Positions 31,441 to 58,500 of a stretch of DNA of 64,000 bases are shown one piece after another (within the stretch, counting starts at the first letter, position 1; the number at the start of each line of letters is the position of its first letter). The position numbers and the translations under genes are program-made. Where the stretch lies: the NCBI GenBank assembly GCA_951406725.2, contig OX597825.1:57288001-57352000 (forward strand). The letters run 5' to 3'. The notes beneath the pieces were generated by a model. That model saw only the letters and a program-made list of their open reading frames with translations, was not told where the DNA came from and did no database searches. Origin of the DNA: Octopus vulgaris (taxonomy: Eukaryota).

Positions 31441-32650
31441 ATTATTTTTATTATTATTATTGTTCAGTAGTCTTATTTTCATAACGTGCTTTCACTGCAC
31501 TAATGAGCGCATCTCTGCCTTGGGTATGTGCTGTGGTTTGTTGTGATGGTAACTATATTGAAAGTGTTTTACATAGGATGTGTACAGTGCCTAGTAGTGC
31601 CATTTTCTGTATATTATATATATTTGTTAGTCCTGGTGTTTTTGTTATGTATTTGTCTGAATTTTTTTTCATGCACCCACTGTGATAGGAATTGTTTCTG
31701 CTTTTAGACTCCACATTCGAGTTACCTTTATTTCCAGGTCTTTGTATTTTGAAAGTTTCATGTTTATTTCTTTGGTAAATCCATGTACTGTCTGTAGTAA
31801 TGTTTCCAGCTGTTTATCATTTGTAGCATACAGCTTTAGATCATCCATATATAAGAGGTGGTTGATTGTTTTGCTGTAATAGTTGTATCCACATCCAGTT
31901 CTGTTTAGCATGTCAGATAAAGGTTTCAGTACCAAGCAGAAAAGGATTGGAGAGAGAGCGTGTCTCCTTGGAATATTCCTCTTCTAATGGGGATGGCTTC
32001 GGTTTTCATGAGTCCCTCTTTTGTCTGGAGCTCTAGCACTGTCTGCCATTTATTCATAGTGTTTTATATATTTTATAATTATTGGTGCTACCTTGTTCAT
32101 GGCTAGTGTTTCTAGGATCCATGTGTGGGGAATACTATCAAAAGCCTTTCGGTAATTGATCCAGGCCATACATAGACCCTTCTTTCTTCGGCTGTCTTCA
32201 GTTATGGCTTTATTGATCAGTAGCTGATCTTTACAGCCGTATGAGTCCTTGCAGCATCCCTTCTGCTCTTCTGGAAACGGGTTGTTTTCTTCCAGATGCT
32301 TGCTCATTCTCTGTGATATTATTTCTCAGCCAGCTTTTTGTGTGTTCCTGTCAGATATTTTACCTAGAAGCTGGGGATCTTATCGTGCCTGGGTGCCTTT
32401 TAGTTGCTTAGTTTTTGCAGTACCTGGGTGACCTCTTCAGTTGTTATAGGGGTCCAGAGTTGTTCAGGTGTTGAGTTCATTGTTTTAATAGACCTTTTCT
32501 GTGGTTGTTCCTTCATCGACCATATTTCTTTCCAAAATTCTTCCACTTCAGCTGTTGGCGCTGCATTGATGTCTATTTTATTTTTGCTAAGTTCTTGGTA
32601 GGATCTTTTGGGGTTGGAGTTGAACTGTTTGTTTTGTTCAAAGAAACATT
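31440..32650 (-). mobile_element. Internally deleted R4/Dong-clade non-LTR retrotransposon
   Basis: [41 protein letters not shown] and KYKDLEIKVTRMW...PITVGA motifs. (TAA)n 3' tail near 31440-31460. Confidence 0.85.
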
Positions 32651-32895: not shown

Positions 32896-33225
32896 GAAAC
32901 AAAGCCTGCAGCCAAACCAGGGCGGAAAGAGAAGAAAGCTGCCTCAGCAGGAGATGCTGCACCTGCCGTTGCTGATGAAGAAGTAAAGGCTGATGGTGAG
33001 AAGGCTGATGAAGTAAAAGCTGAGGATGCAGAACCTGTTGAGAAGGAGGAAGCTGCTGCTGAAGATGAGGTCAAGGAAGAAACTGCTGACGGTGAAGTGA
33101 AAGAAAATGATGAACATGAGAAGGAAAATGATGAGTCTAAAGCAGAGGAAGCTGATGAAGAAGTGAAAGAAGAGGAGAAAGCTAATGAAGAAAGTTCCAA
33201 GGAAGAGAATGCTGGGACAGAATAG
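32896..33225 (+). CDS. Gene 1 last coding exon: Lys/Pro/Ala linker and Glu/Asp-rich tail; complete product ~198 aa disordered basic-acidic protein (HMGN-like architecture)
   Basis: Acceptor tctttttgctttcag|, frame continuous with the previous exon, TAG at 33223-33225, coding-like codon usage. Confidence 0.9.
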   Translation, partial: ETKPAAKPGRKEKKAASAGDAAPAVADEEVKADGEKADEVKAEDAEPVEKEEAAAEDEVKEETADGEVKENDEHEKENDESKAEEADEEVKEEEKANEESSKEENAGTE

Positions 33226-40959: not shown

Positions 40960-42050
40960 TTAAGTCAAGTTTTGTGTTATGGTCCATTCAAGTAGCGAGT
41001 TGTATCCAGGTATGGATACAACTCACTCCAGACTCCATTTAAAGGTGATGTCCAGGCTCCGTTTAAAGGTGATGAGATCCTTTTTCCTCTTAGATCAGCT
41101 TCGGGACAAATTGTGTCGCAGTGTACCTATATGTTGTGATCCTGAATTGGGCAAGGGATGAACCTTGAAGTTAATGTTCAGGTCGTTTGGGCAATGCTGG
41201 TGGTATATTCTCCATATCATGCAAATGATGTACTGCTCGTGGTGACGCTGGAGAGAGGAGTTTTAAGGCTTTAAGGTGGTCCCAGTAATCAAGATCACAA
41301 CAATTACTCCTAGGTCTCTGATATTATCAGATGCTGTGAGCGGCTCCCCAGAAGGAAGAATGTATGGCTGTTTTAGTATAGTCTTTCTTCCAAAATGGAT
41401 CAGCTCATATTTTCCCTCGTTTAGTTGCATTTTGTTTTTGTACGCCCATTGACACACCACATATAGATCAGACGAGTTAAGTTTGGTCTTCTTCATCGAT
41501 AATTTTCTGGAGCCTAGTGTCATAAAATATTTTCACTTTGCAGTGTTTTGCGATGTTGGAAAGGTCGTTTATATAGATTACAAAGAGGAGTGGGCCCAAG
41601 ACAGTTTCCTGAGGGACACCACTGGTGACTTTTGCAGGGCTTGAGTGGACTCCATCGACCACAACATGTGTTCTATTCACCAGGAACTACTCAATCCAGT
41701 GTAGATGTTTTCCACAGATTCCAACATTTGCTAGTTTTGAGAATAAGATATTATAGTCTACTCTGTCGAATGCTTTACTGAAGTCAAGATATATGGCATC
41801 GGAGTTCGAACCTGTTCCCAAGGCTTTTAGTATATCCTCAATGAGGTGTAAGAGCTGTGTTAGACAGTCCCTGCCACAGTGAAAGCTATGCTGATTTGCA
41901 TTTAGGAGTTTGTGGATCTCCAGGAAGGCAGCTATCCTTGATCTTACCACTCTTTCAAACACTTTTAAGATTTGAGAGGTGAGTGAGATTGGGCGACAGT
42001 TGACTGTGAGGGATCTGTTTCCCTGTTTGAAAACTGGGATAGGAGCCGTT
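40960..42050 (-). mobile_element. CR1-clade LINE ORF2 (RT) fragment, pseudogenised
   Basis: NCRPISLTSQILKVFER, YLDFSKAFDRVD, SGVPQETVLGPLLFVIYINDL and IRDLGVIV motifs with stops and frameshifts. Confidence 0.9.
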
Positions 42051-45000
42051 TTGGTATATAACCTGAGTCTAAAGAATTTCACCAGAGGTTGGTCAGCCTG
42101 CTCAGAACGTGAAGACAGACGAAATACCACTAAGTGTTTCACCTAGTATGCTAACATTTCTTGCTTGCCTTAAACTTTACAATATTACAATAATTTTATT
42201 TTTATTACTTTACGAATCAAAGGATATTATAAGGAAACCTAATTTGACATAAAAATATCTTGACACATTTATAACATCCCAAATAACTCATTGGCATTTC
42301 TATCCACCTGTTTAATTTGACACTCCGACAGAGTAAAATTTATTGTACAGAACAATGTATTACACAGTAATAATAGTAAATAACTGTTACAAGTTGTACG
42401 CAATCTGACCTCACCAGTTTGACCTTGGTTACATTATAGCTGTTATAGCTGTTGAAAAAATCTAACTTCATAAAAGGAATGTTTTGTTTATCCCACACAC
42501 GCTGATTTTTTTTTCTAGAGGTCATAACTTCAAAATTACTTTAAAATACAACTCATTTCTATTTTATCTTTTAATCAGAAGAGAAGGTAGAGGCCAAAAC
42601 TTTCACAGGAGCTCCAAGATAGATGTGTGTGAGAGACAAGAATGCACTGACAAACTAGAGACCTGGTTTGAAAATTTATAACAGAGTAGTTTGCACTAAA
42701 GACACCCAAGGTGCCAAGTCATTAGCATTATTATCACCATCTATCTATGTTCCATGCTGGCATAGGTTGGGTGGTTTGACAGGATCCAATGGGCCCAAGG
42801 GCTGCATCATGCTCAGTGTCTGCTTTAGCATGGTTTCTATGGCTCAATGCTTTTTCTGTGCCATGAGCACTAGTGAGGTCACCATGCAGCTTGCATAACT
42901 ATGACATCTAAAGGGAAAGTTTTATGCTAGACAATGAAGGGTGAAAGTATGAAAGAAGGGGCCAGAGTAGAACAGGATTCTTGCTGTTCCACTCACTGTG
43001 AACATTTGTTATGAAACACCGAAGACTCTTCTAATTATTCCAGTTGCATGATTCGATCTTATTGCTGGGGTGACCAGATTAAATTTTTGGATATGTATAT
43101 TGATAGGTTATGCATTGATCCCTTGTATTTAAACATAGTATTATATCTAGGAATTTGACTAAAATTTAGTTTGTATTAATGATTGTGTCAAACACATCTA
43201 AATTTGCTCGTAGAATGATAATCCTTATGATATGAGACTGCTAAACCCTTTCTCTGTATAACTGTGTGGAGCTGGAAAACAATAAAAATATTGGTGGTGA
43301 TGGATTAAATCTGACCACCCAAGTAGAGCACAGCAAGATTTTGACTCAGAATGCAAAGGGCTGAAACAAATACAAGGAATTTGGTTCAGCATTTTTATAG
43401 TTCAACCAATCCATCCTGCTTCATTGGTACAGGTTTATCAAATCTTTAAAGATGAAAGGTAAAGTTGACTTCAGAGCATAGTGAATCAGAACAAATGCCA
43501 GGAGGCAAACTATCCAACTAATTAATTAATGTTCTTTTTACTATAGGCACAACACCTGAAATCTTAGAGGAGGGAGCTAGAAAATTATATCAACACTAGT
43601 GTGTGGCTGGTATTTATTTTATTGATCCTGAGAGGATGAAAGCAAAGTTGATCTTGGTGAGATTTGAACTCAGAATGTAAAGAGAGATGAAATAGCTCTA
43701 AGGATTCTGTCCAATGTGCTAATAATTCTACCACTTTGCTACCTTCCAACTAATTCATGCATTTAAAATATATAAAATTTTATTTTGATATAAGTGAAAT
43801 TTTAAAATTAAAAAAAATAAATTTAGTTTTAGAAAGTATGTAAGACTGAACAGAGAATTCCTGTTAGAAAAACTGAAAGAAAATTCTAGAAGTGTTTATT
43901 GGCTGAAGGAATCTTCACTGGCTTCTCAACTTTGAAGTATATTTTTCATATTGCCAATTTATACTGTCTCCAGAATTTCTTATGTTAAATTCAAATCTTA
44001 TCACTATGGACTTATCACATGAGCAGAGAAAAATTGTTTTGTGGCTGTAAACAAGACACCTACTGCTCTAGTGTAGCTCCAGTTTGTCTCTCTGAACGGA
44101 ATTAGAATGCTGGTCAACTACCAATAATATGGTCATGAATTCCGACCTCAACTACAACCTGGAGGTGTAGCTCTGAATAAGGCATCAAACTCTACTTGTG
44201 ACTCTCAAAGAACAGGGAAAAAAATTTCAAGAAATTGAGAATAATTTTTCAAAGTTAATTTACATGCCCAGAAAAATGTTTGAGCATGCAAGAGGGATAA
44301 CTATGGGCATATTTTTAGTCTATTACACTTCACCAACAAGGTACAAGAAGTACTCTATTCAAGAAGTTAGCAGGTTGATGTATAGAATGCTGTATCCCTA
44401 AAAATCTGAATTGAAATATACCTTTTAGTTGGAGAGAGAAAACAAAAATCCAATGGCAATTGTTTGTGACTCCTCAAACAAAAAAGGAGAAAATTGTTAG
44501 CAATTAAGAATTAATCTCTCAAAGTTAATTTACATGGTAAGGAAAGGAAAATCTTATTTTTGTTTGCAGACAAGGAACAAATTATAGAGACATGTTTCTG
44601 TCTATTCAGATCTCATCAGCATTAAATTGCCTACCATATCAGTTGACAAAAATATTTACATCTTAAAGAGAGTTACAAATAATTTTTAGTTACAGCCCAT
44701 TTCTTTTAGTTCATCATCATCTTACATCTGCATTCTATGCCAGAATGGTCCAGGTTACTGGAAGCCACTGCTCTCATAGACTGGTGCTTATATGTGTCAT
44801 TTTAGCTTGCCTTCTAAAGCTGGATGTCTTTTCTATTGCCAGCTACTTTATAGAATATTCTGCATTCATTTTCTAATGGCACCATCACTAGAAAGGTTGA
44901 TAAATTCTCAGTGAGAGGACTAAAGGGATCTCACAACCTAATGATTCCTTATAGTTTCAATCATGCAAACTATTTGTAACTCTTTTTCTAAATGCAAAAG

Positions 45001-49314: not shown

Positions 49315-50437
49315 CAGTGGTTCTCAACAGGTATCCATATGGCCCCTGAGGGCCCATATAAGATTTTGGTGGGCTCCATGCAGCAAAATAGTAAATTGAG
49401 GATTCACAATAGTATTTTAAGGGCCCCTGAAAAAAATGTTGCTTTAAATGTATGTAATGGTGTTTATTGCAAGAAACAGATTTCTTTCTTTATTATTTTA
49501 CACAGTTATATCTACATATATGTGGAGGCAGATGGCCTAGTGGTTAGAGCAGCAGATTCGCAGTCGAGGGATCGCGAGTTCGAATCGCAGACCGGGCGAT
49601 GTGCGTGTTTATGAGTGAAACACCTAAGCTCCACGCAACTCCAGCAGAAGGTAATGGCGAACTTCTGCCGATTCTTTCGCCACAACTTTCTCTCACTCTT
49701 TCCTCCTGCATCTTGCAGCTCACCTACGATGGACCAGCAACCCATCCAGGTGGGGAACCTATACACCAAGGAAACCAGGAAACTGGCCCTTATGAGTTAG
49801 GCGTGGCTCGAGAAGGAACAAATCTACACATATGTTATGGTTTGAAAAACAAAATGTTAGTGTGAGTTGTGAAGAAATATCTAATATTTCAGACAGTTGA
49901 AATGGTGAGATAATTCAACAGCCTCTTGGTCAGCAGTTTTCAACTATTTTTCGCCTATGGACCCCTTTGATTATTATTTTACTCTGGTGAACCCCCATAG
50001 CCATTTGATGTTTAGAACTACTTGCTTTTCACACATTGAATTGTCGTGGTTGAATTATGCAAAGTGTTAGAGTGAGAAATCTTGGTGTTCCTTGCAATAT
50101 ATACATCTAAAACAACCTTTTTTCGTGAACCCTTAACTCTTCAGTAGTCGGATTCTTCTGTCAAATGTGATGCTTATTTATTTACATTGTTTTGAATTAA
50201 TCAAACTTTATCTCATAGCTTTGAAATTTTGATGATGTAATTGTATATTTTTTGTATGATATTGTAAGATACTGTACGAGGCCAAATCTGGCCAATTTGA
50301 GCATAAAACAGGTAATATATTTCGGCTGGATGTGGTCGGTTTAAATGTCAAGGGGTTAATATACTGCTGTGGGTCCCTAATTTACTATTTAGTGTGGACC
50401 CCCGCAATTTTATATGGATCCTGGTTGAGAACCACTG
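49315..50437. mobile_element. Nested hAT-type MITE(s) containing a family-D SINE (49521-49822) and a TTAA MITE (50132-50358)
   Basis: Ends cagtggttctcaac / gttgagaaccactg. The SINE has A box tggcctagtgg and B box gagttcgaatc. Confidence 0.7.
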
Positions 50438-51179
50438 GTCTAAGTGGTTGCTCAGTTTGCTAGAAACAGCAGCCAAATTTCTTTTCAAATCATACCTTAG
50501 CATCTTAAAACAAATAAGGACACACTAGATAAGAAGTTTTAGATACACAAGATACGATGGTTACAGGTGAGGTGCCCCTGATCAGAAGTCTACTTGCTTT
50601 AAGGATGACATAATATACCCTCTTTCATAATTTTTAAAAATATATCTCTTTTTTTTTTTTTGGCTGTACCAACTAATATTTTTTCTTGTAGTTTGCTTTT
50701 TCTTTTTTGGATTTCATACCAGAATATTCTGTGAAAGAATTTCATTGCATTGATAGTTATCTAGCTGCCACTGAGGAATGGAAATGGTTCCTTGTAGTAG
50801 TAGTAGTAGTAGTAGTAAGTAGTAGTAGTTGTTGTTGTTGTTGTTGTGGTGGTGGTAGTAGTAGTGGTGGTGGTGCTGGTGGTGGTAGTAGTAGTAGTGA
50901 CAACAGTAATAGTAATAGTCCTTATTGTCATATATTTCAACTTTTTAAGATAGGGAAGGGATGGATGATCCAAGTCCGGAGTATTACTGGTGTTTATCAA
51001 TATTATTATTATTTCATTTTGTTCTTTTGTTTTTGGCAGGGACTTGAACAGAAATTTAATGAAAGATGAAATCAGATTTGGCTGGATTGGAGCTCACAAC
51101 ACAGAGGAAATGTAACTAAATATTGTATTGTATTTAGTCAGTTTTTTTTTTTTTACTCTTCCTGCCAAACCCCTTTTTT

Positions 51180-53114
51180 TTAAAGGAGCTGAAATATTGC
51201 AACAAAATTTGTTTCAGTTGGATAATTATATAACCAAGTTTTGCCCTGAATTTCTACTTCAGACTGAAGATCTTTCCATCTTCCAGCTGGAATGTATATA
51301 TCACGCTTTTTGATGCTATCACATAAGTTGGGGGCAACCATTAACTTATTGCCAATAAGAAATTGGTCTGAGATGTTGAGAGTTGTTTTATCATTAGGGT
51401 TGACCCACCAAAGGGGGCGAATAATTGGAAGGCCTGCTTTGATGTCTGAAGAAAGGCCTTCAACAGTTTTGTACACTAATTTTCGATGGAGAGTGATAAG
51501 GCTTTGTAAATGTAATGAAGTTGTGTGATTATATAAGTACCTGCTGTATGACAAACGGACAACTGGCATAAAAGAAGCCAAGGTGATATATCGCATGTAC
51601 AGTTCTTGAGTAATATTGGGAAATTTTACAGGGGAAAGAGTTATGTACGGATATCCTAACATACTAACAGTTAGTGCCTGATCAATGACATTATTAATAC
51701 AGGTATACTTGCCTCTTGACACAAACATAGATTTAACATTGATCACTAATAGTTTATGTTTGTTTAATTTGGAATCGTAATAAAATATTTCTGAACTGTT
51801 TTTGTAGAATGACGCCATTTTATCAACGTAATCTTTTATAGTGTAACTTGTGTTATAAAAGCGAATGTTCTTTGGAATGTAGCTCTGTCCAATTGCTAAA
51901 TTACGGAATCCTCCAAATTCTGGCTTTGTAGAAAGGTGGAGCAATTTGTCCAAATACCATTTTGAAGCATTTGGGTTGGAAACATCTATAATAGCCATCT
52001 GTTTATTTTGCCATTTGACAAGTTTTGTAACGTCACTCAAATCATCCCTTATAAAATATCCTGACATCATTCCAACATTGAATTCTTTGGAAGTGAAATG
52101 GAAATAAGGACTTATTGGATATATAATACCAATATTATGACAATCAACTTGACGAAGGAATTCAGAGATATTTGGGAACTGTTTGGCATCAAAAGTGAAA
52201 TCTCCCTGACTTTGTTGCCAATTGTTATTCAATTCGATGTAAGTATCATTATAAGTGTGAGTGTATTTACTATTAATGAAATTAAGGATGGCACTTTGTA
52301 TAGAAATATTCCTGGAATTTTCTTCAAAAGACCAGATCATTGTTTTTAAAAGTTTATTGTTCTTTGCTAGTTCATTTTGGTTCACAGGTAAAAATATCTT
52401 TTTCATGTTGACATAAGTATCTCTGATATCATTACCTTGACACAGATAATAGTGGAGTTGTTGGTCGGGATATGGTTGTCTTAGGTCTGGCAGAAGACAA
52501 AATAATCCATCATCAGAAGAATTCCAGCTAATTTCAAAAGGATGTGAGTCATTTACAAAGATTCCAACACCATCAGAACTAATCCAAAGTGGTTCTAATA
52601 CAGAACCCAATATATCTGATGATTCTGTTGAAAATGGAATATGATCAGTAGAAAAATTCTTCAGTGGCCATGATTGCCTTGAACCAATGTTCATTCCATA
52701 CCAATTAGAAGATTTTATCTGGTAACAATCAAGGAACTCTTCTACCTGTGAAATTTCCCAATTTATAGAATAGCAATACAGACCGCCTTTTTCTTCATGA
52801 AGTATTTGTAGCTTGGTAGAGCGCTGACTTTGATAACATAATTCTTGAATGCTTTGTTCTTTAATCTTCGGTTGACAAAAATGAAAGCTAGATGTGAGGT
52901 TGATTCCTAACCATCCAGTTAGAGTTATTCCTTTAAATTTATTCAACAGTTGTACTTTCCGTTCAGCTTCAGAGAAATGGATAAGTCTGCCAACCAAAAT
53001 AGCATTGGTTTGTCTTGCATGAAGAACTCTTACAGATATGAAACCAGCAAGAATCAATATGAAGAGTGTGGCCACAGTGTATTTAAGCAGTTTGGAGTTT
53101 TCTTTACTTGGAGT
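51180..53114 (-). CDS. MYORG: MYORG/KIAA1161-like glycoside hydrolase family 31 type II membrane protein, main exon; catalytic residues apparently lost
   Basis: Intact 644-codon frame after acceptor ttcattag|. N-terminal TM (VATLFILILAGFISV). Motifs LGSVLEPLWISSDG, GDFTFDAKQFP, LTVSMLGYPY, PIIRPLWW, SDQFLIG..LMVAP and RDIYIPAGRW. Many N-glycosylation sequons. It is likely a divergent paralog rather than the true ortholog. Confidence 0.9.
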   Translation of the reverse strand, partial: TPSKENSKLLKYTVATLFILILAGFISVRVLHARQTNAILVGRLIHFSEAERKVQLLNKFKGITLTGWLGINLTSSFHFCQPKIKEQSIQELCYQSQRSTKLQILHEEKGGLYCYSINWEISQVEEFLDCYQIKSSNWYGMNIGSRQSWPLKNFSTDHIPFSTESSDILGSVLEPLWISSDGVGIFVNDSHPFEISWNSSDDGLFCLLPDLRQPYPDQQLHYYLCQGNDIRDTYVNMKKIFLPVNQNELAKNNKLLKTMIWSFEENSRNISIQSAILNFINSKYTHTYNDTYIELNNNWQQSQGDFTFDAKQFPNISEFLRQVDCHNIGIIYPISPYFHFTSKEFNVGMMSGYFIRDDLSDVTKLVKWQNKQMAIIDVSNPNASKWYLDKLLHLSTKPEFGGFRNLAIGQSYIPKNIRFYNTSYTIKDYVDKMASFYKNSSEIFYYDSKLNKHKLLVINVKSMFVSRGKYTCINNVIDQALTVSMLGYPYITLSPVKFPNITQELYMRYITLASFMPVVRLSYSRYLYNHTTSLHLQSLITLHRKLVYKTVEGLSSDIKAGLPIIRPLWWVNPNDKTTLNISDQFLIGNKLMVAPNLCDSIKKRDIYIPAGRWKDLQSEVEIQGKTWLYNYPTETNFVAIFQLL

Positions 53115-53279
53115 CTAATGAACAGATAAAATATAAACATATAATTAGCCATGGTAGAAAATGACCGTCTGAATCTGGAGCATTTAATACAATTAATACA
53201 AAGTAATTAAATATTAAAGAGGTAAAGCATTTTCATAAAACCAAATGAGGTCTCATTAAATAATCTGAGGAGGCTTTCG

Positions 53280-53324
<45 letters not shown>

Positions 53325-53331
53325 GCAGCAG

Positions 53332-53758
53332 ACTTAATTTTAGTAATAATCATTTCTATTAAAGGCACAAGGCTTGAAATTTGGAGGAAGGGGAATAGTT
53401 GATTACATCAACCCCATTGTGTAACTGGTATTTATTTCATCAATCCCCAAAGGATGAAAAGCAAAGTCAACCTAAGCAGAATTTGAACTCAACGTAAGAT
53501 GGATGAAATGCTGCTAAGCAATTTGCCTAGTGTGCCAACGATTCTGCCAGCTCATCTAGTTGATTACATCGACCCCAGTGTTTCATTGGTACTTAATTTT
53601 AGTAATAATCATTTCTATTAAAGGCACAAGGCTTGAAATTTGGAGGAAGGGGAATAGTTGATTACATCAACCCCATTGTATAACTGGTATTTATTTCATC
53701 AATCCCCAAAGGATGAAAAGCAAAGTCAACCTAAGCAGAATTTGAACTCAACGTAAGA
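53332..53758. repeat. Recent 168-bp direct duplication (53332-53499 and 53591-53758) within a - strand family-B SINE cluster
   Basis: The copies are identical except one base (tgtgtaact vs tgtataact). Confidence 0.85.
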
Positions 53759-53822
53759 GCAGACAAAATACCAGTAAGCATTTATCCTGGTGCGCTAACA
53801 ATTCTGCTAGCTTACCATCTTA

Positions 53823-53858
<36 letters not shown>

Positions 53859-54179
53859 GTCTTACTACTATAGGCACAAGGCCTGAAATTTTGGGGAGGG
53901 GTAAGTCAATTATATCAACCCCAGTACTCAACTGGTACTTAATTTATTGACGCCCAAAAGGATGAAAGGCAAAGTTGACCCCAGCAGAACATAGTGACTG
54001 ATGAAATGCCACTAAGCATTTAGCCTGGCATGCTAACAATTCTGCCACCTTAATAATAATAATAATGATGATGATTTCTTTACTGACCACAGAGTGTTTG
54101 CATAAAGAAAAACATTATGGATGGCACAGAAAAATATTAAATATGTGTGTGCACATGATATGCTGTGAGGCTTTTGTGT

Positions 54180-56029: not shown

Positions 56030-58500
56030 TTTCTTTACTGGCCACAAGGGCTAAACACAAAACAATTAAGGGCAATACAAAACAAGGGACAAGTGGGGTT
56101 TAAAACAGAAAAGATGTAAATAATATAAAAAACAAAGAGTTAACAAAAGCGTTAGACAACAAAATTCCACAATAGGGGGTAGTTTCACCCAGGACCAGCC
56201 AGGGCAACCCAACTTCCAAGGCCACACCATGTAGGCACACCATGTCCTCTCAACTGCTCCAGCTTACAGACGAATATTCAGAGTAGGCTGACTCACACAA
56301 GCCATTTTTGCAACATTCATCTACCTTTCAACAAACTTGGGGTTAGTACTTCCCTCTCTACCCTCACTTTCCTTTTCAAGTGGAACTTGAAAATGTTGAT
56401 GAGGATTCAGCTGAAGAGGAAAGTGTCTGTCTTCAGTCCTTTCAAGCTTGTCCACTCCACTACCTCAGTCACTATAGCCATCAGGCAGAGGACAACTGCC
56501 TTTTCTTCCCAGCCAAAAGAAGGCAGTGGGGCAATCCTCACAATGGACTTGGCTCATAACAGGATCCATCCTACATGTGACAACAGCTGTTTGACAAAGC
56601 TTCACAGGTCAGTAATGCATGGACACTGGATGAGTGCACGCAGGACAGTTTCATCGCCCTGCGCACACCTTGGACAGGTCCATCTGACAGCACTTCTGGG
56701 TCTGTAGAACTTGTCTTGCACTGGCAGAGCTCCCTGAGGTGACACTGTGTGTCTTTGAGTGAGGTTCTCACTTTTAAAGAGGACTGCAATGCTGGCAAAC
56801 TGAATCCCTCTCTATATATGGGCCACATCTATTAAAATTTCTCTGAGGGCCTTCTCAAATGACTGATGGATGCTATTTCAGCTCTCCAAGTTTTGCATGA
56901 TACACATCCAAAATAGTCTTCTTCCTCTATTTTGCCTCTATTATTTCAGGAGGTGTGAGTACTGCAGCCTTATCACCCTCAAATTTAAGGATATCTTTTG
57001 CTTTTGTGAGTTCACACATTTTATCATTGAGTGGTATGACAAACATCTCTCTCTTTGTGTTCATTACATCAGCAAACCTTTTATTTTTGTTGTTGTTACA
57101 ACTGCTGCTGCTGTTACTGTCGGTGGGGGTGGGGGTGGAATTATGGTCATTTCCACTGTTGCCACTCTCACCACTGTCACCGTTATTTTCCTCCTCTCTG
57201 CCTTCGATATTAGCATTACTTTTTTTCCTGCTAAAATCTGTTGCATTTTTAAAGAACACACTATCCCTACTGCTACTGTCTCTGCCACCACTGCTAGGGG
57301 ATAAGGTGATTACATCAACCCAGTGCTTGACTGGTACTTATTTTACTGACCTTGAAAGGATGACAGTCAGAGTCAACCATGGCAGAATGTAAAGATAGAT
57401 GAGATGCTGCAAAGCTTTTTACCCAAACTACTAACAATTCTGTCAACAACAACAACAGCAACACCACCACCACCACCAGCAACAACAACAACAACAACAA
57501 CAATCCTTTCTACTAAAAGCACAAGGCCTGAAATTTTGGGGGAGGGGACCAGTCAATTACATTGACCCCAGTTTTTCACTGGTACTTAATTTATCGACCC
57601 CAAATGGATGAAAGGCAAAGTCAACCTCGGTGGAATTTCAATAATAATGACAATCTTTTCTTTATTCACCACTGAGGGTTTATATAGAAGACTGGCAACA
57701 GCACAGGACAATGCCACACAAAAAGTGTGGGATTTAATTGTGTAAAAAGGTAACAACAATAAAAATTATAACAAATAAATCTCCAAAAGAGGGAGGCTTC
57801 CAAGGGATACTCGTGGAAACCCTACAAAAACCATGATTGCCCTGATCTCTAAAGTATGTGCCCTCTCCACTTCATCTACCCTTGATATAAAGGTGCATGC
57901 TTAGAGTAGGCCTGCTCACTTGGGCTATCCACACTACATCTTTTGACAAAATTGCTGGGAGGCAGCATTTCCCTCTCTACCCTCACTCTTCAAGTGAAAC
58001 TTGAAAAAATTGATGAGGGTTTGGTCAAAAAGGAAAGTGTCTGTCTTCAGCCCTTTCAACCTGGTCCACCACACAACCTCTTTTGCTAAGACCACCAGAC
58101 AAAGAAACACTTATTTCTTTATTGCTCACTAGGGGCTAAACATAGGGGGAACAAACAAGGACAGACAAAGGGATTATGTCGATTACATCGACCCCAGTGC
58201 GTAACTGGTACTTAATTTATCTACCCTGAAAGGATGAAAGGCAAAGTCGACCTCGGCGGCATTTGAACTCAGAACGTAACGGCAGACAAAATATCGCTAA
58301 GCATTTCGCCCGGCATGCTAATGTTTCTGCCAGACAAAGAAACACTGTCTGCCTAAAGGAAAGCAGTGGGGCGATCTTCATGATGGAACAGCAGGTGTTT
58401 GACATAAATCCACAAGTGAGCAATGCTTGGGCACTGAATGAGAGTGTCGCGGGAGTAAGTGAATTAGCTCATACAGGGAACTGAGGCCATGCGACAGACT
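56030..58500 (-). mobile_element. Two Tx1/L1-like LINE remnants with inserted family-B SINEs
   Basis: IFKFHLKRKVRVERE-type ORF2 C-terminus occurs twice (~56350-56400 and ~57970-58015). The SINE at 58112-58333 is flanked by the repeat ccagacaaagaaacact. Confidence 0.6.

Follow-up and report, generated by a model that had tools for sequence, protein, structure and literature searches.

A retained, apparently expressed MYORG paralogue of Octopus vulgaris, very probably catalytically dead, and the old, apparently mollusc-wide clade to which it belongs

The window analysed here, a 64-kb stretch of Octopus vulgaris DNA, carries on its minus strand the last coding exon of a gene for a MYORG-like type II membrane protein. 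The exon translation is a 100% match to residues 140-783 of the Octopus sinensis protein XP_029643591.1, whose database name is 'myogenesis-regulating glycosidase'. The frame had been described from its letters as full-length and stop-free; stop-free it is, over 644 codons, but it has no start codon, and the 'stop' that precedes it belongs to a splice acceptor ending in TAG, so that only the last exon is at hand. The first 139 residues of the 783-residue protein are absent from the 64-kb window by tblastn, and just one of their 134 six-mers, of low complexity, matched it; the intron extends past the end of the window, or the upstream exons lie beyond it. The features on which the argument draws are given below, with residues of the octopus protein numbered along the exon's open reading frame.

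51180..53114, minus strand: last coding exon, phase 0, 644 codons and stop, encoding residues 140-783 of a 783-residue MYORG-like type II membrane protein
53115..53150, minus strand: splice acceptor, a pyrimidine-rich tract ending in TAG (sequence; depth 0 at 53148-53281 in four of four runs)
53016..53078, minus strand: single transmembrane helix, residues 13-33 (hydropathy; helix 4-37 in the structure model)
52323..52325, minus strand: Glu at the place of MYORG W321 (alignment)
52224..52229, minus strand: Asn-Asn at the place of MYORG D353/D354 (alignment)
51999..52097, minus strand: barrel insert, residues 340-372, corresponding to the MYORG dimer surface (alignment; predicted homodimer interface)
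51897..51899, minus strand: Leu406 (TTA) at the place of the nucleophile D463 (alignment, model)
51774..51776, minus strand: Asp447 at the place of MYORG R504 (profile register), the same in five of five coleoid proteins
51729..51746, minus strand: strand beta6, VINVKS, with Ser462 (profile) or Val460 (pairwise) for the acid/base D520, and R517 lost
51699..51728, minus strand: predicted beta-hairpin in place of the loop that follows the acid/base, ending in Cys472 (51701-51699) (DSSP strands 463-467 and 470-474)
51321..51323, minus strand: Cys598, new, in the C-terminal beta domain, always accompanying Cys472
50200..51179, minus strand: 3' untranslated region of at least about 1 kb (contig cover in four of four runs)

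Contigs of four of four runs (from four studies; four of the 20 matching runs) cover the exon and end their match at 53114, past which they carry 338-502 further letters, known by their length, with 53148-53281 left uncovered. This pattern looks like that of a spliced transcript, the runs being presumed to be RNA. Continuity of the 3' untranslated region is assumed across a repeat gap at 50785-50926 that the contigs do not bridge. Within the coding part the contigs differ at five positions, four of them silent and one changing Ser to Asn (p about 0.04 if neutral), and the frame is open in three Octopus species, in Argonauta and in three further relatives, with 55-96% identity among coleoids. 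As a separate observation, three T>C changes on the plus strand (A>G in the transcript) fall in the 3' untranslated region, at 50378 in four of four runs and at 50382 and 50383 in two of four, partial in one; they look like clustered A-to-I editing, or alleles.

Elsewhere in the window, about 32896-33225 on the plus strand is probably the last exon of another gene, following a CAG acceptor-like site; its product is very acidic, of low complexity and rich in Glu, Ala and Lys, and has no Pfam match above cut-off. Short minus-strand frames at 31669-31983 and 41687-42142, which resemble LINE reverse transcriptase, and at 56927-57337 appear to be pieces of retrotransposon proteins, and SINE-like repeats occur in many copies, for example at 53280-54000.

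Assignment of the exon product to the MYORG branch of GH31 draws on sequence and on a predicted structure. Pfam recognises the GH31 barrel (59.7 bits, cut-off 23.5) and the GH31 C-terminal domain (63.3 bits, cut-off 24.4); the closest solved relative is MYORG (E 1e-63; 2.7e-63 and 8e-64 for the chains 7QQF and 7QQH), with the next family at 8e-20, and the single N-terminal helix and missing distal C-terminal domain are as in the MYORG/NET37 subfamily. The structure model (pLDDT 90.6) has MYORG as its best match (TM 0.80-0.82; Z 41.5; rmsd 2.8 over 585 residues, residues 39-644 of the model pairing with 88-713 of MYORG), and matches in the ESM Atlas are to MYORG-like clusters only. The superposition on MYORG that the preliminary description called for finds the GH31 fold retained in the model, and the transmembrane anchor that it reported is recovered as one helix, both by hydropathy and in the model. 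The query is a MYORG-derived GH31 protein with a predicted MYORG fold. Human MYORG (NET37, KIAA1161), a GH31 alpha-galactosidase of known structure (7QQF, 7QQG, 7QQH), shares with it the type II layout, the N-terminal beta domain, the barrel with its dimer insert, the proximal beta domain and the lack of a distal domain, at about 25% identity, whereas in the octopus protein all nine pocket residues, the two catalytic Asp included, are replaced, a new hairpin is predicted, a new cysteine pair is present, and the cytosolic tail, about 150 residues long, has ExxxLL and YxxV motifs.

Loss of the catalytic residues had been proposed from four altered motifs, and these lie where they were reported, IELNNNW at 52238-52218, GGFRNLAIG at 51914-51888, VINVKS at 51746-51729 and ITLSPVK at 51644-51624; alignment to 7QQF and 7QQH sets them opposite LEIDD, SFKFDAGE, RLVDRD and LPDMVGG, respectively. 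Pocket residues of MYORG were taken from the structure paper, in the available text of which D353 and D354 bind the 4-OH and 6-OH and W321 determines galactose specificity (PMC9491548), and were mapped in two ways, by pairwise alignment to 7QQF and with a profile built from 39 relatives whose nucleophile motif is intact. None of the nine (both catalytic Asp, W321, D353, D354, W426, K461, R504 and R517) is retained in the query: beyond the replacements already listed, Gln stands at the W426 place within the barrel insert and Arg at the K461 place. At the two catalytic positions stand Leu and Ser or Val, and neither Asp nor Glu. The nucleophile place is Leu in five of five coleoid proteins, and the acid/base place is Ser or Pro in the profile register or Val or Ile in the pairwise one, with a conserved acid in neither; the Ser462 register fits the modelled strand 457-460. 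Asp447 is the sole conserved acid at a pocket position. Coleoid relatives that share 55-96% identity with the query show the same losses, retaining 0/9 pocket residues in O. sinensis and in Argonauta and 1/9 in the three further relatives at 55-57% identity, which are probably squid or cuttlefish. Four coleoid proteins keep 6% of the nine pocket columns as against 60% of 65 other columns chosen as conserved at 90% or more in 40 fully intact relatives, a concentration of motif loss in the pocket that argues against chance. The protein very probably has no hydrolase activity, and binding of galactosides at the old site has probably been lost as well. What the preliminary description took for a retained, catalytically dead MYORG paralogue is thus borne out by the lost catalytic residues and the retained predicted fold, and the spliced-looking contigs make it an apparently expressed one.

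The single-exon nature of the frame was overlooked at that stage, as was the spread of the dead lineage over cephalopods, gastropods and bivalves. Both catalytic Asp are present in 45 of the 150 nearest representatives (50% clustering), a set biased by the query towards dead relatives. Both in a first tree and in an IQ-TREE analysis of 67 chosen rows, from which the pocket columns had been removed, the query falls inside an all-dead clade (SH-aLRT 99 in the latter) whose named members come from Octopus, Argonauta, Lottia (two), Nucella, Plakobranchus, Sinanodonta, Tegillarca and Mizuhopecten, and in which both Asp occur in 0/41 members. It is made up of subclade A (support 96), with a second dead O. 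sinensis paralogue, XP_029647573.1, and subclade B (97), with the query. Cephalopod, gastropod and bivalve members are found in both, which makes it likely that catalytic loss and the duplication predate the split of these three classes. Joining the coleoids to active mollusc MYORGs was rejected (p-AU 1.6e-6) in a 26-row subset of the 67 in which subclade B is unresolved, the group having been chosen in knowledge of a first tree. Both active and dead MYORG forms are present in bivalves and gastropods; with active MYORGs as queries, no named cephalopod active MYORG was found among the best 120 of 672 and the best 120 of 1511 matches, many of which are nameless.

As these are 'quick' trees with long branches, an independent marker matters, and one is provided by the two new cysteines. 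Of 377 proteins, isoforms included, 73 have both Cys472 and Cys598, and not one of these has both Asp; neither cysteine occurs in any of 213 proteins with both Asp or of 88 other dead proteins; three proteins have Cys472 alone, and all three lack the stretch that bears Cys598. One protein, P0155, was too short and was excluded from both tree and count. Together with six older cysteines the pair brings the conserved luminal cysteines to eight, which makes an internal disulfide, Cys472-Cys598 (Cys611-Cys737 along the full-length protein), likely. The pair makes members of the dead mollusc clade easy to recognise; on tree and marker that clade appears to be old and mollusc-wide. Of 149 representatives 66 are dead MYORG-like proteins that lack the pair (wasp, spider and others; e.g., P0113, P0020, P0038, P0059), and catalysis has thus seemingly been lost several times in the subfamily.

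Subclade A has features of its own. Its members (among them the second octopus paralogue, P0193 / P0013) have long cytosolic tails, with a median of about 300 residues, and in nearly all rows a transmembrane helix with His at its start and Trp/Leu-His/Tyr at its end. Acids are retained at the D353 and R504 places, D353 itself in 18 of 22 rows and Asp or Glu at the R504 place in 15 of 22, and given these acids subclade A may bind something; it may do a different job from B.

Dead NET37/MYORG paralogues are already known in flies, which the preliminary description also overlooked (PMC8063059), and the mollusc clade is apparently undescribed. The dipteran non-catalytic NET37 clade IV (e.g., sandfly LlGlyMyo1/2) is, in the available parts of that source, inactive by sequence and retained in several species, with the nucleophile Asp kept and Pro at the acid/base (PMC8063059 and its supplementary Table 6). 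Like the query, its members are MYORG-like membrane proteins judged inactive; unlike them, the query has Leu at the nucleophile. Arthropod rows that combine the nucleophile Asp with an acid/base Pro branch apart from the mollusc clade and do not have the cysteine pair, in a tree that did not include the sandfly sequences. MYORG appears under the GH31 activities in a survey of the glycoside hydrolases of molluscs, which in its available text does not mention dead members (PMC7560691), and no description of a dead mollusc MYORG clade was found in the literature searched, which left outside most subscription journals and the supplementary GH31 trees of that survey. Since the query and its relatives bear the database names 'myogenesis-regulating glycosidase' or 'alpha-glucosidase', counts of mollusc enzymes include many dead members.

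What is best conserved lies mostly near the membrane and at the dimer surface. The best-kept windows of four coleoid proteins are a cytosolic motif (13/15 invariant), the luminal end of the membrane helix (12/15), the stalk (12/15), the barrel insert (12/15) and a C-terminal strand (12/15), as against 47% for the luminal part overall. Within the insert F340, F345, M349, V362 and L365 are invariant in five of five coleoid proteins; five of the seven interface residues named in the available text of the MYORG structure paper map to invariant hydrophobics of the same kind, E407 being Met and I429 Gln (PMC9491548), and several insert columns have a conservation of 0.8-1.0 in the dead clade compared with about 0.6 or less in active enzymes. 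A homodimer through the barrel insert is predicted: the model scored 0.32 (best control 0.00), just at the mark, with the interface at 340-372, and separate runs gave 0.00, 0.32 and 0.36, with a contact agreement of at least 0% and pLDDT of at least 75. That mark is reached by 21/30 pairs and 0/23 single chains in a microbial benchmark, and by 17/29 pairs, 1/7 without a solved relative, and 0/30 single chains in a eukaryotic one; the MYORG dimer being already solved, the pass may be memory.

The tail, too, is distinctive. Active MYORG enzymes have a median tail of 16 residues. An ExxxLL pattern within the first 35 residues occurs in 8/8 of the subclade B tails of at least 60 residues (0.2 expected by shuffle), a test that leaves aside the 11 of 19 B rows without such a tail and in which four of the eight carriers are coleoid orthologues; elsewhere it occurs in 0/13 subclade A, 1/27 other dead and 0/3 active proteins. 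The named gastropod members of the subclade, from Lottia and Plakobranchus, have short tails and do not match the pattern. Motifs of the dileucine type are bound by clathrin adaptors, which direct their cargo to endosomes and lysosomes. That helix, stalk, dimer surface and tail motifs are all conserved speaks for protein contacts close to the membrane.

From these elements a role may be sketched. The protein would be a dead, dimeric MYORG derivative, its predicted fold and dimer surface retained and its catalysis and pocket gone. The ExxxLL of its tail would be recognised by adaptors, with endo-lysosomal routing as the outcome, a step that we hold to be somewhat probable. The conserved helix and stalk would hold a membrane partner, which the dimer would escort towards endosomes or lysosomes. 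This escort step is a matter of motif logic and analogy, and the reading we prefer, with slightly more doubt than confidence, is that of a subunit without catalysis that escorts a membrane protein, the latter held through helix and stalk. Our best guess for the partner would be a solute transporter, since according to two reviews, in their available text, human MYORG binds in the ER to SLC20A2, a phosphate transporter, and affects its surface delivery (PMC12404772 and PMC12844366).

Pseudoglycosidases such as YKL-39 (GH18) and klotho (GH1) are examples, in the available text of one source, of a fold that outlasts catalysis (PMC7828330), as it appears to have done in the query. YKL-39 retains sugar binding, as the same text has it, whereas the sugar contacts of the query are gone; klotho binds a protein hormone, and the query is likened to it by the retention of the fold (PMC7828330). 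The query might accordingly be a klotho-like receptor or co-receptor, its dead luminal domain binding a soluble protein or peptide and its dileucine motif serving for uptake. The large intact luminal domain, the remodelled pocket face with its predicted new hairpin and the sorting motifs of the tail would all suit such a role, for which dead glycosidase domains that bind proteins set a precedent (PMC7828330). We nevertheless consider it unlikely: across the subclade no part is less conserved than the pocket face, and in coleoids few are better conserved than the membrane helix and stalk, which favours a partner embedded in the membrane.

The first suggestion made for this protein, a glycan-binding lectin or chaperone, fares somewhat worse. 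As a lectin at the old site it does not stand, the sugar-binding residues having been lost along with the catalytic ones and their replacements varying across the subclade; the stacking tryptophans and hydroxyl contacts are gone. Rephrased as a lectin or glycoprotein chaperone that holds glycans in a rebuilt pocket, it could appeal to the retained barrel, to the possible ligands of the sister subclade, and to D447, R404 and R520, which are invariant in five of five coleoid proteins near the barrel mouth and leave room for some small-ligand site. Yet in the query's own subclade W321, D353, D354, W426, R504 and R517 are all lost, both stacking tryptophans among them, and at each of these places even the commonest residue is found in less than half of the 19 rows; we regard the idea as improbable.

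A regulatory subunit, heterodimerising through the retained insert with active MYORG, a partnership that the preliminary description also raised, or with the second dead paralogue, seems slightly more improbable still. The insert residues, in several columns better conserved in the dead clade than in active enzymes, would allow it, as would the coexistence of active and dead forms in bivalves and gastropods and the presence of XP_029647573.1 in O. sinensis; but active enzymes have neither long cytosolic tails nor sorting motifs, a difference that points to separate compartments.

That the protein is still an enzyme, through migrated catalytic residues or through rescue by A-to-I editing, is highly improbable. 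The invariant D447 lies at a strand end; editing could turn Asn codons into Asp at the places of D353, D354 and strand beta6; and in Argonauta hians P0003 strand beta6 has, beside the acid/base place, Asp and Glu, the residues that A-to-G changes would make of the octopus Asn (AAT) and Lys (AAA). Those Argonauta acids are missing from the other four of the five coleoid proteins, though, and no clade member has both Asp. Rescue by editing was rejected because the nucleophile codon, TTA, cannot yield an acidic residue by A-to-G editing and the contigs of four of four runs, which drop rare variants, carry no A-to-G change on the coding strand. A decaying pseudogene or assembly artefact, for which nothing more than the lost motifs would speak, can be set aside as a negligible prospect in view of the open frames across relatives, the spliced-looking contigs, the mostly silent differences and the pocket-specific loss.

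To return to the escort subunit, its nearest functional parallel would lie in another family. The SLC3 heavy chains (4F2hc/CD98hc and rBAT) are type II proteins with a glycosidase-like luminal domain and transporter partners. We think that the query may work like them, by analogy, with two differences: they belong to GH13 (PMC8063059, available text), whereas the query is GH31 by Pfam and by its top fold matches, and its eight conserved luminal cysteines, an even number, leave none unpaired for a covalent link. More speculatively, and rather improbable when taken as a whole, molluscs may have two ancient non-enzymatic MYORG accessory subunits, a GH31 counterpart of SLC3, the query escorting a solute transporter, perhaps an SLC20-type phosphate transporter, to organelles that are endo-lysosomal or related to lysosomes, and with dead forms perhaps the only ones left in coleoids.

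MYORG causes human brain calcification, and we know of no natural substrate for it. A lineage that has probably been without catalysis since before the main mollusc classes split, and in which dimer surface and anchor are retained, offers a natural test of the non-catalytic side of MYORG, and bears on whether MYORG works by catalysis or by way of proteins that it binds, SLC20A2 for example. If the reading of two SLC3-like accessory subunits is true, it would amount to a split made by nature between the escort role and the galactosidase activity of MYORG.
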